Virus record (IMG/VR): IMGVR_UViG_3300033153_009397
Location: 16,004 to 80,003 of that record
Direction: 5' to 3' (one strand)
Length of the DNA stretch: 64,000 nucleotides
Origin: a virus
Below the pieces are notes generated by a model that did not search any database, was not told the DNA's origin, and saw only the letters and a program-made list of their open reading frames with translations. Both the position numbers and the translations under genes were made by a program. This document shows positions 2,277 through 36,236 of the stretch, one piece after another (within the stretch, counting starts at the first letter, position 1; every line of letters starts with the position of its first letter).

Positions 2277-3122
2277 ATGACTATTATATATGGAAATTTC
2301 TATGATGTAATGTATGATAAAATAAACTGTGAATCTATTGACCACCTTATAACCGACCCGCCATTTGGTATAGAATTAAAAAGTAATCAAAGCTCGTACA
2401 ATAGAAAAGATGACAATGTAATAGGAGGATATATTGAATGGAGCAAAGAAGATTATTTTTCAAATATGAATGCGTTGCTATCTAGTGCTGCACGAGTATG
2501 CAAATCTACTGCTAACATAATAATATTCAGTAGCTGGAATAATCTACCTATCTTTTTCAAAGCTTTCAACAATAGATGGATAAAAGATATCTATAACTAT
2601 CAAGGAAATATAGTATGGAAATACCAATTTGGAGTAAGAAACAATTCAATAATAACGGGTCATTATCATATTCACTGGTTGACTTTTAGAACAAACAAGA
2701 AACCTATTTTTAATAGAGACTGTAGATATCCTCCAATAAGTGAGGAAAATAAAAGATTATCATATGCTGACAGATACAGTGTGTGGAACATAAAAAAGAA
2801 ATATAGACGAAATGTAAGAAAATATACCACAGAACTCCCATCGGAACTATGTGATAAGCTTATTCAATATTTCACTAACGAAGGGGATATAGTACTAGAC
2901 CCATTTGCTGGAGCTGGCAATATTGCTGTTGCAGCCAAAAAATATGAAAGATTGCCATTATCTATAGAACTTAACCATGAAGTTATACCTTACCTTATGC
3001 ACAAAGTATATGGTAAATCAATATTTGAGGGATGGCCCACTTCAAAAATAAAATCTTATTTAGAAAAAAATCCTATACAACATTCAAAACAATTGGAGGA
3101 CAGACAATGTTTAATACTATAA
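2277..3122 (+). CDS. DNA methyltransferase, N6-A/N4-C beta class
   Basis: Catalytic DPPF motif N-terminal and SAM-binding VLDPFAGAG C-terminal. Confidence 0.9.
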   Translation: MTIIYGNFYDVMYDKINCESIDHLITDPPFGIELKSNQSSYNRKDDNVIGGYIEWSKEDYFSNMNALLSSAARVCKSTANIIIFSSWNNLPIFFKAFNNRWIKDIYNYQGNIVWKYQFGVRNNSIITGHYHIHWLTFRTNKKPIFNRDCRYPPISEENKRLSYADRYSVWNIKKKYRRNVRKYTTELPSELCDKLIQYFTNEGDIVLDPFAGAGNIAVAAKKYERLPLSIELNHEVIPYLMHKVYGKSIFEGWPTSKIKSYLEKNPIQHSKQLEDRQCLIL

Positions 3123-4204
3123 GCGTTAATATTATTGTAAATAGAGAAAGGGGATGTCACAATTTACTTCGAGGGACAATTTCTTGGCTTACTGCTCTGA
3201 AGAACAATTATCTTCCAGAAGGAGCAATAGACGAAGTTCTCGTAGCTTGCTCAAAAAGCGAGTTCGTAAGAACAAAAAAAATGCTCATTCCAATAAAAGA
3301 ACAAGGAATAAGAGTAGAAGTCATACCAAAAGAAAACGTAGATATAGATAAAGCCGAGACCAGAAATAATTTAATGAGGGTATCTAGAAATAACCTTATT
3401 CTTTTTTTAGACCCTACAATATTGATAGGGAGTACTGCAAGATTATATATTCAACAAGTAGTAGAAGGTAAATTAATGAAAAAAAGCAATGAAGTCTTAG
3501 TTACTAAAAACTTGAAAATAGGACTAGTAGACTTATCCGGAAAGTTTTCTTCACTACATATGTTGTCTACTACTCGAGCCATTTCATTTATTGAACCTAA
3601 ACCGTACCAAACAATCAATAATCATCCACTGTTATTCTACAATTTATACCCAGATAACTTATGGATAGATTACATACCACCAGTACTCAGAAATGCTAAA
3701 TATCCAGAAAGACTTGATGCTCCGGAAAAAAGAGTGGGTCTTTCAACAACAAGACAGACATTTGTAAGAAACGTAGAAGATGAAGAATTAGAACAAATTA
3801 TCTGTTCTCTTTCTCTTGACTTTTCCAGAATATCTTCTACTTACCTATATCTTGAAGATTATATAGAAGAACATACAACCATAGAACCTTATCATACTAC
3901 ATACAAAACTTCTGGTAAAGTATATGCTTGTAACATTACTCTTAGATATCCTAATCCTTATGAAATTCAACCTATCCTAAAAAGGCTATTCTATGGTTCT
4001 GATGCTTTCATGCATTATATGAACTACAGATTAAATCTCTATCTTTCAAATACTTATTCTGATATAATTGTAGATATTAATAGAAGACCAAGACTTTACC
4101 AGTATGGTCATGATGAAGGTTTATTTGACTTTCCTCATGATGGGGACAACTCTCTTTTTGCCGAGATGCCTCGTGTATATGATTCAATTAATCCAAAGGA
4201 GTAA
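3107..4204 (+). CDS. Putative GT-A-fold glycosyltransferase-like protein
   Basis: RNNLMRVSRNNLILFLDP resembles the GT2 'RN...ilflDxD' segment. Start moved to ATG 3107 behind GGAGG. Confidence 0.4.
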   Translation: MFNTISVNIIVNRERGCHNLLRGTISWLTALKNNYLPEGAIDEVLVACSKSEFVRTKKMLIPIKEQGIRVEVIPKENVDIDKAETRNNLMRVSRNNLILFLDPTILIGSTARLYIQQVVEGKLMKKSNEVLVTKNLKIGLVDLSGKFSSLHMLSTTRAISFIEPKPYQTINNHPLLFYNLYPDNLWIDYIPPVLRNAKYPERLDAPEKRVGLSTTRQTFVRNVEDEELEQIICSLSLDFSRISSTYLYLEDYIEEHTTIEPYHTTYKTSGKVYACNITLRYPNPYEIQPILKRLFYGSDAFMHYMNYRLNLYLSNTYSDIIVDINRRPRLYQYGHDEGLFDFPHDGDNSLFAEMPRVYDSINPKE

Positions 4205-10424: not shown

Positions 10425-11396
10425 TTAAACGTATTTACGCCACTCTGGTAATTGTTCATCCATCCATTGATACATTTCATTATCTGTATGATGGATGAAG
10501 TATGTTGAACTATTATTCAATAAATCACTAATTGCTATCTTCATCGCTCTTAACTGATTAGAACGTTCCTTCTCTGTTAGTTTATTTGACAGCTTATTCT
10601 TGCAAGTGTTATATTTCTTTGCTAATTGGTTTTTCCTCATTCCCGTTTGAGCTAGACCCCCTAACAATAGGGACATGGTAGCAATGGGTTCGGTTATACC
10701 ATCGAAGCGAATAGTTAAACCTAACTCTCTGCTCCTCTGAAACCACATAAGCAGAGCAGAAGCAGAAGCGTTATTTCTTGCCAATCTAGACAAGTCTAAT
10801 TGACCCAATTCAAGAACTAATAGATTAACAGACCTATTAATCAACAGTTCTGTTACATCAAATAGAAAGTCTGTTAGTTCATCAATCTTAAACTGTTTTA
10901 TTCTTGAGAATATCCCAAAGATGAAAGATTTGCCTATTTGACCCTTCTTAATTGACTTTTTAGCTACTTCAACGTCAGAGAATATAGCATATTGTAGTTT
11001 AGTCACTTTATCTTTAATATTCAACCCGTAAATCCCAAAACTGTTAAGGGTACGGGGTTTTGTAGCCTTATAGACCTTTGGCTTTGGTTTTCCCTTCATA
11101 ATCTTTACCTCTACCTCCTCAACTTCAGTTAGTGATAGGTAGATGTCATTTAGCTTCATATTTTTGTAATATTCTCCTTTTAAGGCTTGGTACGTTTCCC
11201 TCCAGAGCGTTTTAAACTCTGTTGCCTTTAACAATCTCTCTAATCTTCCCTTGCTTAAAGCTCTTTCTCCTTGAACGGTGAGGTCAAGGCTCTCAAACCT
11301 TACCCCTAGCTTATAGTTAGGGGCTATGAAGACTATAACTTGTTTTTCTTCGTCTTCTCCTATAACTCTTAAATCCTTGTTCAGCATTTCAAACAC
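10425..11396 (-). CDS. Protein with a degenerate serine-recombinase/resolvase-like C-terminal domain
   Basis: LLVLEL...LSRLARN...ELGLTIRF...LLLGGLAQ follows the resolvase DRLxR-to-helix-E pattern. No clear YxRxS nucleophile motif. Confidence 0.45.
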   Translation of the reverse strand: MFEMLNKDLRVIGEDEEKQVIVFIAPNYKLGVRFESLDLTVQGERALSKGRLERLLKATEFKTLWRETYQALKGEYYKNMKLNDIYLSLTEVEEVEVKIMKGKPKPKVYKATKPRTLNSFGIYGLNIKDKVTKLQYAIFSDVEVAKKSIKKGQIGKSFIFGIFSRIKQFKIDELTDFLFDVTELLINRSVNLLVLELGQLDLSRLARNNASASALLMWFQRSRELGLTIRFDGITEPIATMSLLLGGLAQTGMRKNQLAKKYNTCKNKLSNKLTEKERSNQLRAMKIAISDLLNNSSTYFIHHTDNEMYQWMDEQLPEWRKYV

Positions 11397-11437
11397 AACC
11401 TAATATATAAAAGTGTTAAAAGTATTTAAATGTGTCG

Positions 11438-11495
11438 TAAGGAAACAAGGAAACAAAATTCTATCATGATAGGGCTTTGTTTCCTTGTTTCCTTA
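11438..11495. repeat. AAGGAAAC-box inverted repeat, copy 1
   Basis: TAAGGAAACAAGGAAACAAA-att-CTATCATGATAG-ggc-TTTGTTTCCTTGTTTCCTTA: perfect 20-bp arms with a palindromic core. Confidence 0.9.
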
Positions 11496-12735: not shown

Positions 12736-12778
12736 GCACTAAATCGATAAAAAAAGATTAAAAACTATAAGATGTTTT

Positions 12779-13126
12779 TCAGATGTCTTTGTAGGGGTGT
12801 CCTACTGCACTTTTACAGCTAGAACAAATAAGCTGTACTGTCAAAATACCGTCGCTATCACAATCTAGTGTTATCAAGTAGCTGTTACTGTCGTCTCTCT
12901 CGTCTTCCTCAATCTTACAATATTCACATTCACAAAAATGTCTTACTTCACTCTCAAACTCAATGTTGTACATCCCATGAGTTTCAGCGTTGTATTTAGC
13001 TCTTATCTTTCTTACTTCATCAGCTTGCTCTCTTGTTATTCTTTGAATATTGTAACAATTAGGACAAAAGACTGCATTGTAGAAAAGACTTACTTCCATT
13101 TTGCTACTGCACTTTTTACATCTCAT
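12779..13126 (-). CDS. Double Zn-ribbon protein
   Basis: Four CxxC pairs. Confidence 0.7.
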   Translation of the reverse strand: MRCKKCSSKMEVSLFYNAVFCPNCYNIQRITREQADEVRKIRAKYNAETHGMYNIEFESEVRHFCECEYCKIEEDERDDSNSYLITLDCDSDGILTVQLICSSCKSAVGHPYKDI

Positions 13127-13879: not shown

Positions 13880-14505
13880 TCCACCCCCTCTTCCTTATCT
13901 TGACCATAAGATGTTAAATATTAGGTAGAGCCTTTCTACTGCCCGACAAATTCTTTTTTTCTTGCGTCCTAAAGTCGAAAAATACCTTACGTCAGCCTTG
14001 TTTCACTTCAACTTAATGACAAGTGTGTATCAGTCAGCCTATTTTCTTTCTTTTGTACTACTTCCTACTTTTTTTCTTTAGATGTGTAAATTTACTAAAC
14101 ACCGATTTTCACAGACATGAGTTTAAAGGCTTGAGAACACTGACCGGTATATTCACAAGCGACGTAGTACAACTCTCTTGTAATACCATCTTAACATTTC
14201 TATCATCTTCAAACTTCATCCATAAGATGTAAGATAGTAAGACGATAAGCTTACAAGCGTTTCGCTATTCTTGTACTACTTCATCTTCAAAACCTTCGAT
14301 AACCCCACTATACTATATATATAGTGGCACTATCGAAAGCTTTGGAAACGACAAAAGGGGTTTGAGCCGGAGAGGAGACAGAATAAGAAATTAAAATCGA
14401 CAAAAGTCAAGAGAGGACAGAAAAACAGCGTTAGAAAGAAAAAAGGAAAAAGAAGAAAAGAGAACTAAAGATAAAGACACTTGAGGGATATCAAGAAACA
14501 GTTAT
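13880..14505. other. Large non-coding region with a central palindrome; candidate replication origin or genome terminus
   Basis: No credible ORF. TTCGATA/CCACTATA...TATAGTGG/TATCGAA palindrome at 14295-14337, with a pyrimidine-rich left flank and a purine-rich right flank. Confidence 0.4.
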
Positions 14506-14508
14506 CAT

Positions 14509-14999: not shown

Positions 15000-15586
15000 T
15001 CGTAACGTACCTCCTTGTTTTTCTCTCGTTCTATGGCATAAAGGGAAGCCATGAATTCAACACCGTTGAAAGTGTGTCGAGAATTGCCAAGCATAACGAG
15101 TTTGTAGTTTTTAAGAGCATAAGAGAAGCCAATGAGTAGATTAGTAACAGCAAGACGCAATGAAACTTCATCATCATGTCTATAAAGCAGAACAAACTCG
15201 GGAACTATGGTAAAAGCATGTCTGGTATGAGCATGAGAAGTACGGTAACTATAATGTTCAGTATAGCGTCGAACTACCCTCTCTTGTAAAATAATTGCTG
15301 GTTCAAGTTCAAACATCTTACGTAAGCGTCGAATAACAAAACAAAGAGAAGGGGGCAAAAACTGGTCAATGACATGCCAATAATAGTAATCATCTGCATC
15401 TGTAATAGGCAAACTCTTCATGGCTTCAAGGTAAGGAATATCATACTCGGCATAAGAGCCATAGCCTTCTTTTTGGAGCTTATCAAAGGGTGTTCTAAAC
15501 TTTGTAGGTTGCCAATTTACTAAAATTCCCGTATATCTATGAGGATAGAAGGAAGGGAGAATGTAAGTATCACTTTTAGTCATCAA
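14996..15586 (-). CDS. Hypothetical protein
   Basis: ATGA overlaps. Confidence 0.7.
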   Translation of the reverse strand: MMTKSDTYILPSFYPHRYTGILVNWQPTKFRTPFDKLQKEGYGSYAEYDIPYLEAMKSLPITDADDYYYWHVIDQFLPPSLCFVIRRLRKMFELEPAIILQERVVRRYTEHYSYRTSHAHTRHAFTIVPEFVLLYRHDDEVSLRLAVTNLLIGFSYALKNYKLVMLGNSRHTFNGVEFMASLYAIEREKNKEVRYE

Positions 15587-15813
15587 TATCTACCTTCCTC
15601 CACCTTTATGCTAAAATCATATGTTGAATATTTTGAGTTTAGTAACAGAACAGCAAAGAAAAAGACGACAGCCGTTTCAAAGGAGCATTTGCCAAGTAAA
15701 TATAGGACTGGAATAAGGATAATTGCTACTAGAGTCGTTATACCTATAACAAAAGTGATGCAATTAATACGATATTGGAGAAGCTTTATTCTATACCAGT
15801 GTTCTTCAGTCAT
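15583..15813 (-). CDS. Two-TM membrane protein
   Basis: Two hydrophobic segments. Confidence 0.65.
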   Translation of the reverse strand: MTEEHWYRIKLLQYRINCITFVIGITTLVAIILIPVLYLLGKCSFETAVVFFFAVLLLNSKYSTYDFSIKVEEGRY

Positions 15814-18098: not shown

Positions 18099-18382
18099 GC
18101 AATGACATAAGCAGTCATTCTGTATTGTATTCCTCCTAGGAGGAGGTAAAATTGTAAGAAACGTCCTCCTCCTTCGACTCTGCTGATTTGTTCATTTGCA
18201 CACTCTTGTAATTCTTGGTACTCATTGACCAATTGCTCTAGTTGTTCATGAGATTGAATTACAATAGGATTGCCTACATTGGTAAAAACGCTTTCTGAGC
18301 TGATAACGCTATAAGGTCGGTCTGGTACATCTTCTTCAAAGGTTCTTTGGCTTCTTTCTTTCCATTGTGCTATAAGTGTCAT
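18065..18382 (-). CDS. Hypothetical protein
   Basis: ATGA overlaps. Confidence 0.65.
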   Translation of the reverse strand: MTLIAQWKERSQRTFEEDVPDRPYSVISSESVFTNVGNPIVIQSHEQLEQLVNEYQELQECANEQISRVEGGGRFLQFYLLLGGIQYRMTAYVIAWVLGWEVIER

Positions 18383-18693
18383 TTTAAAGTCTCCTCAAAG
18401 ATATTTTTGCCATATTTGTATTCTAATGAGTTTTTGTGCAAAGGTAACGGGTCTAGCTTTTCGAGAATGGGTTTGACTTCCTCACGGCTGAATGGAACTA
18501 CAATTTCTTGTGCATGTAGTTCTTTTTCATGGTTATAATTAGGTTCAGAAGCCCAATCGGCATAGATGAGCCATCCTAAACAATTAGACCAGCATAAAAC
18601 TGAATAATCTCCAGAAGGGAATTTCTCTGTTCTAACTCCGTAACGAGTACGGGTGGCTATTATGGAATTTATTGACTGAACTATGTCTGCCAA
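18379..18693 (-). CDS. Hypothetical protein
   Basis: TTG start with AGGAGG RBS. Confidence 0.65.
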   Translation of the reverse strand: MADIVQSINSIIATRTRYGVRTEKFPSGDYSVLCWSNCLGWLIYADWASEPNYNHEKELHAQEIVVPFSREEVKPILEKLDPLPLHKNSLEYKYGKNIFEETLK

Positions 18694-18779
18694 TAGTATT
18701 CCTCCTTTTTATTTGTGATTGTTTTTTTGGTCATTTTCAATCAGCCACAATTCTCAAAGGGTTTTTTAAAGATTTAGTG

Positions 18780-18814
18780 TAAGGAAACAAGGACACAAGG
18801 AAACAAGGACACAA
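18780..18814. repeat. AAGGA(A/C)AC x4 tandem box, copy 4
   Basis: TAAGGAAAC AAGGACAC AAGGAAAC AAGGACAC, between a minus-strand TTTAAAAA and a plus-strand TTTAAATA. Confidence 0.9.
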
Positions 18815-18845
18815 AATTTAAATACTTTTGTTGTCTCTAAATATT

Positions 18846-18910
18846 GGGAGCATCTCACGCTTTCATACACAACCTAAAATTCCATTTTAGAGGTGCTCTC
18901 TCTTCTTTTT
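18846..18910 (+). ncRNA. Candidate trans-antisense small RNA
   Basis: Starts 29 nt after TTTAAATA (18817). Terminal stem GGGAGCATCT/AGGTGCTCTC, then a U-tract. The interior matches 11387-11403 at 16/17. Confidence 0.6.
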
Positions 18911-18945
18911 ATATAAATAAGATGTTAGATATTTGATGGTAACGT

Positions 18946-19031
18946 AAAAAAGAAAAATCCCCAGAGGCGAAAAGGCTTCGCTTTTGCGAAGATAGATAGT
19001 TTTTGGGGCACGACAATGACGCCTCTGGGGG
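18946..19031 (-). ncRNA. GC-rich structured RNA element or terminator at the 3' end of an operon
   Basis: 11-bp stem CCCCAGAGGCG/CGCCTCTGGGG enclosing CTTCGC-AAAA-GCGAAG, followed by a U-tract on the minus strand. Confidence 0.5.
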
Positions 19032-19038
19032 AACGTGA

Positions 19039-19260
19039 TTAATCTATGCCAAGTTTCTTCTTGATTTTATCTATCTTTGTTTGTAATATTCTACACTTCT
19101 CTTTGGCATTTTTATATTTGAGATATGCATATGGAGGAGTTGGCTGTCTATCGCACCAATCATAACTAGCTAGCTGGTATCGAAGCTTGCTCTCTTCATA
19201 CTCTATTTGTAATTTAGACAATTTTCGTCGCAGAAAATATTTAGTCCAAATCATTTTCAT
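19039..19260 (-). CDS. Hypothetical protein
   Basis: In-operon ORF. Confidence 0.6.
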   Translation of the reverse strand: MKMIWTKYFLRRKLSKLQIEYEESKLRYQLASYDWCDRQPTPPYAYLKYKNAKEKCRILQTKIDKIKKKLGID

Positions 19261-19496
19261 TCACCATCATTCTTGTAACTTCTGTAGTCTTTTTTTATTA
19301 CTTCAAAATTTGAGATTTGACCTTGCAAGAATTTGCTTTCTTTAGGTTCTAATCCCGCTTTTAGAGTTTCATAAACTATCGTATCTACTTCTGCTGGTGT
19401 GAGATTTTTTGGGATTGTAACTTCTGCTACATGTTCATAATAGCCATTCTCTGTCCATAGAACAGTTACTTTCTCGGTCTTTTTTTCTTGGTTCAT
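19257..19496 (-). CDS. Hypothetical protein
   Basis: ATGA overlap. Confidence 0.65.
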   Translation of the reverse strand: MNQEKKTEKVTVLWTENGYYEHVAEVTIPKNLTPAEVDTIVYETLKAGLEPKESKFLQGQISNFEVIKKDYRSYKNDGE

Positions 19497-30177: not shown

Positions 30178-30539
30178 TCTTTTATCACTGTCCTTTTTAT
30201 CTGCCTATTTTCTACTTCTCTGAGTTTGGCCCGTTTGTAGACCTTTTTTTCTCTGCCAAGTATTTCTTTTTTCAGTTTTCTAAATTCTTTCAGTCTATCT
30301 GGCTTTATTCTGTATACTGGTGTTAGATGTGAGTCTTTTGGATGTCCTTTTTCTAGCAGTTCTGCATAGCTAAATGGATTGATATGGTAATGTACTGTTC
30401 CAGATTTCTTACCTACTTTTTCGCATATTTCACGAATACTCCACCACTGTAAGTTCCCTTCTTCATCAGTTTCTTCTAATAAATCAAGGATAACTTCTTT
30501 GGTGGACTTGGCCTTAACGTCGTCACTTTTTAATGGCAT
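30174..30539 (-). CDS. ArsR-like winged-helix regulator
   Basis: SIREICEKVGKKSGTVHYHI. Confidence 0.7.
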   Translation of the reverse strand: MPLKSDDVKAKSTKEVILDLLEETDEEGNLQWWSIREICEKVGKKSGTVHYHINPFSYAELLEKGHPKDSHLTPVYRIKPDRLKEFRKLKKEILGREKKVYKRAKLREVENRQIKRTVIKE

Positions 30540-36120: not shown

Positions 36121-36190
36121 TGCATAAGGAGGTTTCTGGGCAAGGAAATGACCGAGAACCTTGCCTCAGAAGAATTAGCTGCACTTACGC
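36121..36190 (-). ncRNA. Candidate structured small RNA or 5' leader
   Basis: Starts 29 nt after a minus-strand TTTAAATA. Outer stem GCGUAAG/CUUAUGC, inner stem UUCUG(A)GGCAAGG/CCUUGCCCAGAA, loop UUCUCGGUCAUUU. Confidence 0.5.
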
Positions 36191-36236
36191 AATATACAAA
36201 GGGTACCGAACTATTTAAATTTATTGATGTAGAATT

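Follow-up and report, generated by a model that had tools for sequence, protein, structure and literature searches.

In the genome of a virus known from IMG/VR record IMGVR_UViG_3300033153_009397, a promoter core that drives genes at other sites points at one site towards a hairpin, which raises the question of what is transcribed there. We analysed a 64,000-nucleotide stretch (the window), positions 16004-80003 of this 80,003-bp record, whose completeness is estimated at about half; coordinates are those of the window unless stated otherwise. The hairpin, H1, lies on the plus strand in an intergenic region (18694-19038) that hosts a promoter module (D) and a second hairpin (H2). Part of the H1 loop is antisense to the start of a minus-strand gene, gene A (10425-11396), at a distance of 7.4 kb; the two do not overlap, so H1 is not cis-antisense. 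We propose that the rightward face of module D probably encodes an antisense RNA of ~60 nt that would act in trans and lower the translation of gene A.

Module D consists of four tandem octamer boxes (AAGGAAAC/AAGGACAC; 18781-18812) flanked by two outward-facing TATA boxes. The leftward TATA-like box (CTTTAAAAAA; 18762-18771, minus strand) belongs to an operon starting at 18693, whereas the rightward promoter core (ATTTAAATACTTTT; 18816-18829, plus strand), with its TATA at 18817-24, begins 3 nt from the last box and points at H1. The core recurs exactly (14/14) on the minus strand at 11418-31, within the gene A promoter and operator (11418-11494), where (AAGGAAAC)2, a TCATGA centre and inverted boxes follow at 11439-94. 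Past the core, the gene A and hairpin promoters match at 24 of 33 positions up to the predicted start (ATATTAGG vs ATATTGGG); the two are paralogous. An earlier note on this DNA had described the shared 14-bp core as a trait of this pair. The core is present exactly at both places, but module B carries a copy matching at 13/14, so that the identity is a trait of the module family and provides no private link between RNA and target. The same note had stated that boxes abut both promoter sites, which we confirmed: AAGGAAAC-type boxes have nine matches against 0.24 expected and are confined to four intergenic sites. The leftward face of D, with its TATA and 9-nt linker, shares 89% identity over 37 nt with the B right flank. 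Since the faces of D thus resemble the B right flank and the core of B and gene A, D is essentially a B-type module turned round. The shared core still makes a functional rightward promoter at D plausible.

H1 begins 25-26 nt beyond the TATA centre, where TATA 18817-24 should begin transcription. The predicted small RNA body (18846-18900, plus strand) contains no open reading frame (ORF) and forms an 11-bp stem (arms 18846-56 and 18890-900), including two G·U pairs, around a 33-nt loop; directly after the stem, a T-rich run (TCTTCTTTTT; 18901-18910, plus strand) marks the predicted termination point. On the plus strand the fold has ΔG −15.9 kcal/mol and a z-score of −4.7, with none of 200 shuffles folding as well, and the hairpin and T-tract that the earlier note had placed after the promoter core are present as described. 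On the minus strand the two G·U pairs turn into mismatches, so that the sequence folds no better than its shuffles (z −0.4), and the stem is therefore specific to the plus strand. A scan of the whole genome for hairpins (stem of at least 9 bp, interior of 8-74 nt, T-rich tail) returned six units, of which H1 and H2 are the only two in intergenic DNA.

The H1 loop carries a 17-mer (18861-18877) that matches plus-strand positions 11387-11403 at 16/17, with no other match within three mismatches. The match, which the earlier note had reported at this length, extends to 18/20 (18861-18880, plus strand, the anti-start element, against 11387-11406) and similarity stops sharply there. The proposed target site (11387-11406, minus strand) contains the predicted transcription start, a Shine-Dalgarno (SD)-like AGGTTG, the GTG at 11396 and the A of the ATG at 11387; gene A encodes 323 aa from the former codon or 320 aa from the latter. 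Across the module promoters, an SD-like (A/C)GGTG or AGGTTG lies ~30 nt past the first base of the TATA, with 6-9 nt left to the start codon. Given this position, the complementary stretch of H1 covers the predicted 5′ end of gene A, AGGTTG and the start codons, so the earlier note was right that the loop is complementary to the 5′ end and GTG of this gene. Local alignment of the two ~100-nt regions gave p=0.002. Among 116 gene-start windows gene A was the best, with an ungapped score of 30 against 20 for the next (null 22.5±2.7, p=0.015), and it also had the best duplex energy (−23.4 against −18.5 kcal/mol for the next; p=0.055). Gene A was the top non-self site for RNAduplex across the whole genome, with close runners-up (−22.9 and −21.1). 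Control hairpins and opposite strands gave z-scores of −1.8 to 1.4 with one exception, the minus-strand loop of H1, and the hairpin at 36121-36191 was not significant in the start-window test (p=0.095, z −0.3). We rejected the minus strand of the H1 region as the decayed 5′ end of a gene A paralogue, as similarity ends at 20 nt, and a look-alike match of the region to contig L092, which was not significant (p=0.07).

A related virus carries an equivalent unit with a different loop. The relatives are record G001 (47% identical in TerL) and its sister G002, a record that is 47% complete; TerL identities are 47-50%. Neither has gene A or AAGGAAAC boxes, and both retain modules with other half-sites and a CATG centre. 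At 1740-1925 of G001 we found a D-type module in which a leftward TATA, three tandem GTCGCT boxes, a 3-nt spacer and a rightward TATA (1792-99) are followed, after ~20 nt, by a 55-nt hairpin (hairpin b) whose 10-bp stem closes a 35-nt loop; a T-run and then AGGATGT heptads come next. The loop of hairpin b is unrelated in sequence to that of H1 and contains a perfect 16-nt complement to AAA-TTG-TTAAACGAAA, the TTG start of a gene for a 346-aa protein whose Resolvase domain matches PF00239 above the cut-off (E 9e-8); the complementarity scores 35 against a null of 24.8±2.3 (z 4.5). The G001 resolvase gene lies on the plus strand and gene A on the minus strand, and in both genomes the RNA from the rightward promoter is antisense to the gene. 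That the antisense relation is kept despite the change of target strand is not predicted by a DNA site or a duplication relic. A further hairpin of G001 (hairpin a; 81823-81876, minus strand), 7 nt past a leftward gene, has a loop that complements the SD of the resolvase gene over 13 nt (score 27 against 19.8±1.8). Complementarity is kept with changed sequence in one genome, G001; the orthology of the two targets is unproven.

H2 repeats this arrangement with another target. It lies with its T-run at 18945-19030 on the minus strand (hairpin 18958-19030), where the upstream leftward operon has its 3′ end, and is built as H1 is, with an 11-bp closing stem, a single-stranded 5′ side of 28 nt, an inner hairpin by the 3′ arm and a U-run (ΔG −29.7, z −4.2). 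Its positions 19000-19020 are antisense to the leaderless start of a minus-strand gene at 15218-15754 of the genome, outside the window, for which the best PHROG is head maturation protease (E 3e-5). The match has 19/21 DNA identities and 17 contiguous RNA pairs, with an alignment score of 32 against 13.5±2.0 and an ungapped score of 34 against 22.6±2.5 (p<0.005); for duplex energy, p<0.003. In H1 and H2 alike, the U-run and the interior antisense to a gene start are found on the same strand. H2 may let early transcripts hold back the late head-protease gene by pairing.

The RNA would act as follows. The rightward D face (TATA 18817-24) would drive a non-coding RNA from 18846 to ~18909 that ends in the U-run and folds into an 11-bp stem closing a mostly open 33-nt loop. 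Within this loop, 17-20 nt would pair with the first bases of the gene A mRNA, including AGGUUG and GUG/AUG, and this pairing would mask the ribosome-binding and start region and reduce translation; the duplex might also expose the mRNA to cleavage. A regulator that binds the boxes would switch on gene A and the RNA together, because both stand behind the same operator family, and the output of gene A would be damped or delayed. From the sequence, we infer that the RNA is produced, that it pairs in vivo and that its effect is in this direction. An antisense switch acting in trans was also what the earlier note had proposed; the hairpin antisense to the start of a distant, co-regulated gene is supported by the G001 unit and by H2, but the statistic for the pair itself is borderline. 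With more reserve, we suggest that this virus group could use a family of 'anti-start' hairpin RNAs, in which a stem of 10-11 bp displays a single-stranded element of 15-30 nt that is antisense to a viral gene start. Such RNAs would form a post-transcriptional layer and would be made either from an operator-controlled promoter of their own (H1 and G001 hairpin b, against a recombinase or recombinase-like gene) or as the terminator hairpin of an early operon (H2, against the late head protease, and G001 hairpin a).

Several observations weigh against this reading. An all-versus-all comparison of 17-mers in the 80-kb genome found 88 direct and 70 inverted clusters at 16/17 or better; with ~158 such pairs, any 60-nt stretch has a ~15% chance of one match, and about one match per genome is expected by chance between intergenic DNA and a gene-start window. 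Matches at 16/17 are common genome-wide in this AT-rich genome, and that between H1 and gene A is not exceptional by itself. The earlier note had named equally good matches in shuffled controls as a counter-indication: gene A is the best of the start windows, but the statistic for complementarity alone is borderline (p 0.015-0.055). Moreover, the minus-strand loop of H1 scored 29 (p=0.03; weak duplex, −16.1 kcal/mol) against the gene start at 30539, with which it has no relation, which suggests that the shuffle null is heavy-tailed. Standard cofolding with RNAcofold disfavours the loop interaction unless the stem opens, because the program cannot model loop-to-linear pairing; it places the U-rich tail on purine-rich codons instead, which is a match of low complexity. 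The gene A mRNA may really begin 3 to 6 bases into the complementary stretch, leaving those bases upstream of it. In G001, the stem of hairpin b is perfectly Watson-Crick, so that only promoter geometry assigns its strand, and leftward read-through is another way in which the hairpin could be transcribed. That gene A and the G001 resolvase are homologous is unproven. The earlier note had also called for covariation in relatives, and here the equivalent hairpin of G001 stands against the partial (47% complete) record of G002, in which we found no hairpin antisense to the resolvase start. The only contig with a clear gene A homologue (L093) is too short for a D-type module. Finally, the archaeal host of the virus is a reading from promoter geometry.

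Codons 12-17 of gene A (GGAGAAGACGAAGAAAAA; 11345-11362) are purine-rich and can pair with the pyrimidine tail of the predicted H1 RNA (CUCUUCUUUU; 18901-18909). We did not count this pairing as evidence because the sequence is of low complexity.

Other explanations account for parts of these data. The rightward TATA might fire as a by-product of the quasi-symmetry of the module, with hairpin and T-run preventing collision with the leftward operon and the loop match being a chance event or a relic of duplication. TATA-like sequences and T-runs occur in the right flanks of modules A and B too, the B right flank is so close to the D leftward promoter (89%) that module faces appear interchangeable, matches at 16/17 are frequent in the genome, and a bidirectional promoter with direct repeats has a precedent in the account of halovirus HF2 (PMC8707807). 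However, a terminator needs no 33-nt loop, and a scan of 18500-19300 for a simple intrinsic terminator (short G+C-rich stem, 3-8-nt loop, T-run) found none; the loop match is significant in its context, the G001 counterpart matches the start of its own recombinase with a different loop, and chance or a relic would lose the antisense relation once the target gene changes strand. We consider this explanation unlikely.

Decidedly unlikely, in our estimate, is that the shared 17-20-mers work as DNA, either as recombination sites of the recombinase or recombinase-like product or as operators of a second regulator, with RNA being irrelevant. The shared sequence is without dyad symmetry, its copies have no flanking half-sites in common and gene A has no Resolvase hidden Markov model (HMM) match, although such a site is often found at the 5′ end of recombinase genes and the counterpart gene in G001 and G002 is a genuine serine-recombinase-domain protein. 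The copies are direct here and inverted in G001, like substrates for deletion and inversion, and the G001 module in L094 repeats an 11-mer after both divergent TATA boxes. This explanation leaves aside the matches of H2 to the protease start and of G001 hairpin a to the SD, the plus-strand-specific G·U stem, and the placement of the copies in the open part of a stable hairpin with a T-run. A third possibility is that the minus strand is functional and that a leftward transcript (18930-18840) carries a sense mimic or decoy of the gene A 5′ end, titrating a factor or serving as a second leader of the D operon. Both 20-mers do have the same orientation on that strand, and a TATA-like TTTATATAAAAA lies upstream at 18918-18907, but the fold there is no better than shuffles, the TATA-to-element spacing (40 nt against 27 nt in gene A) is not kept, H2 and its T-run should stop leftward transcription earlier, and similarity ends sharply at the 20-mer; we regard it as highly improbable. 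Each rival leaves unexplained at least one of H2, G001 hairpin a, the strand-specific stem and the strand flip of the target. The small remaining probability falls to explanations of another kind.

Gene A belongs to no known family. Pfam gave no match for it or for eight homologues, PHROGs assigned no family, and a search of this genome with PF00239 (Resolvase) found nothing at E≤10, though G001 and G002 match. BLASTP of gene A against the G001 resolvase was empty. An hhalign comparison of the two gave a colinear alignment of 117 columns (134-258 against 140-261) that includes SRLARN/DRLGRN, with a probability of 4% and E 0.01. The description of gene A as resolvase-like in the earlier note therefore finds no HMM or BLAST support, and the resemblance to resolvases, which this profile alignment alone indicates, is weak and unproven. 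The AlphaFold2 (AF2) model has a predicted local distance difference test (pLDDT) score of 65, and fold searches with such a model are uninformative; a PDB sequence search, Foldseek and VIA-align identified no clear family, leaving weak STAS-like and SNF2-associated leads. One homologue at 43% identity and a few distant ones were found, and a second assembly (13.4 kb) carries an identical gene A (100%). The position of gene A behind a palindromic module mirrors that of the resolvase gene in G002, where a Resolvase-domain gene stands behind a palindromic module with the heptad motif.

The four box-bearing sites share one order, which reads leftward as ACATCTT heptads, boxes, 7-9 nt, TATA and operon. 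Palindromic operators stand at A (11439-94), B (12680-735) and C (13821-76), each made of two boxes, a TCATGA-like centre and two inverted boxes in succession, and the leftward face of module D heads a ten-gene operon whose first gene (18379-18693, minus strand) has the SD GGAGGA and a TTG start. The predicted D operon transcript opens with a near-leaderless 17-codon ORF (ATGACCAAA...; 18684-18734, minus strand) that overlaps this SD and TTG. Its motif TTGAAnATGACCAA, which is similar to the start motif ATGACCGA, occurs three times, at 18684-18734 (minus strand), 16902-17 and 21263-78. The right flank of module B (12736-12790, plus strand) points rightward into the 3′ end of the minus-strand gene 12779-13126. 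Given this orientation and its resemblance to the D leftward promoter, B may fire bidirectionally and yield a short or antisense transcript. Module A has only a weak hairpin (−4.6 kcal/mol) in its right flank.

A heptad motif bounds every module. At D it is ATAAGATGTTAGAT (18917-18930, plus strand), with ACATCTT heptads as its minus-strand reading. In general form the motif is ATAAGATGT(A/T)AGAT, equivalent to ACATCTT, in two or three copies on the gene strand, and it marks the boundary between leftward operons. Plus-strand sites in the window are 11580-93, 12769-77, 13906-19, 14222-35, 18917-30 and 25088-101. The motif also occurs in L093 (1592-1609 and 2916-24), G001 and G002, always on one strand; G001 and G002 have five and three sites, respectively, all on one strand, and a control pattern has 0-1. 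Hairpins and T-runs often stand beside it, and it is probably a termination or 3′-end signal or a protein site.

Palindromic operators have one architecture across the relatives, with two direct half-sites, a TCATGA- or CCATGG-like centre and two inverted half-sites, 7-10 nt before the TATA. The half-sites are virus-specific (AAGGAAAC, GCAAAC, GTCGCT and CGGAAATTCG). Divergence of half-sites within a constant architecture looks like co-evolution of a regulator and its sites. The 43% homologue of gene A lies on the 5.3-kb contig L093 (CAYRIM010000056.1) behind three modules (1645-1705, 2359-2419 and 3082-3142) that have (T/C)GCAAAC half-sites, the same TCATGA centre and the ACATCTTAT motif with T-runs, and contig L092 likewise has the module architecture with different half-sites. 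Over its whole 5.3 kb, which is too short for a D-type module, L093 contains no element antisense to the start of the gene A homologue. The contig was binned to a Candidatus Saccharibacteria metagenome-assembled genome (MAG), which calls for caution in host assignment; the binning is probably wrong because the promoters and modules match this virus group. A scan of contigs with the L093-type operator pattern returned chance matches only, and a further candidate relative, L153, proved unrelated. In G001, one divergent face of a module in L094 (4874-7887; locus ~1240-1500) encodes a leaderless protein of 47 aa with two CxxC pairs that is zinc-ribbon-like and ends at the heptad motif, and each of the two divergent TATA boxes is followed by the 11-mer CTGTGTTACAA, whose copies have the same absolute orientation. 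We regard the protein as a candidate regulator and CTGTGTTACAA as a candidate DNA site.

The genome encodes a tailed-virus gene set, including a large terminase, baseplate J, a family B DNA polymerase with an intein, a helicase and a TROVE/Ro60-like protein. Its promoters look archaeal, with an 8-bp TATA-like box ~26 nt before the predicted start and a leader that is often absent or very short. Between 10.4 and 24 kb, nearly all genes are on the minus strand and run leftward. In this part, the ~630 bp at 13880-14508 are without a convincing leftward ORF, carry an extra heptad motif at 14222 and include G+C-richer stretches, on which grounds they may hold further non-coding elements. Rfam covariance models gave no matches at the gathering score across the whole window, and a search of the window for tRNA and tmRNA found none. 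A megablast against phage records matched nothing, and scans of viral contigs with the operator pattern, the neighbouring 104-aa and 337-aa proteins and the gene A alignment found no relative.

To our knowledge, almost nothing is known of gene regulation in viruses of uncultured archaea. The closest system in mechanism, by analogy, is RNA-OUT of IS10/Tn10, a stem-loop RNA of ~70 nt that pairs through its loop with the very 5′ end of the transposase mRNA and limits its translation. The RNA-OUT gene lies opposite its target and overlaps it perfectly for ~35 nt. In both cases a hairpin loop covers, or would cover, the ribosome-binding site and start codon at the 5′ end of the mRNA of a transposase or a recombinase-like protein, whereas the H1 gene is 7.4 kb from its target, has near-complementarity of 17-20 nt and its own regulated promoter, and belongs to a virus with promoters of archaeal type. 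Small RNAs (sRNAs) that mask start regions in trans are known in bacteria. An sRNA of Methanosarcina mazei acts in this way, sequestering both ribosome-binding site and start codon of a target encoded in trans (PMC3432209). The predicted H1 RNA resembles these bacterial and M. mazei RNAs in the short, imperfect complementarity to the start region and in the use of an open region of a structured RNA for pairing; it differs in being virus-encoded, in having the pairing element inside a hairpin closed by its own ends, in sharing an operator family with its target and in being known from sequence alone.

Antisense RNAs complementary to viral mRNAs have also been described in archaeal viruses, with control proposed or shown. 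T_ant of PhiH (Stolt & Zillig 1993, as cited in PMC8707807) is cis-encoded, and SSV1 antisense transcripts such as T3E are cis-encoded as well, in a preprint that does not use the term 'trans-acting' (bioRxiv 10.64898/2026.06.17.732947). These RNAs are transcribed opposite their targets, whereas H1 would act in trans on a distant gene. Halovirus HF2, as summarized in PMC8707807, has repeated intergenic modules that combine conserved motifs and TATA boxes before the gene cassettes of this archaeal tailed virus, and one of these modules, with direct repeats, fires both ways, as D may; the sequences are unrelated, and in that account of the repeats we noticed no hairpin RNA with an anti-start loop. 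The archaeal-virus antisense RNAs that we found reported are cis-encoded, although trans-acting viral sRNAs in archaea were not searched for systematically.

The prediction is concrete, with defined RNA ends and a 17-20-nt pairing, and can be tested in vitro without culturing a host. If it is true, anti-start RNAs would, as far as we know, be without precedent among archaeal viruses as trans-acting antisense RNAs and would provide an RNA route to early-late timing. These viruses would then combine a transcription-factor regulon with control at the RNA level, much as bacterial phages and transposons restrain their recombinases.

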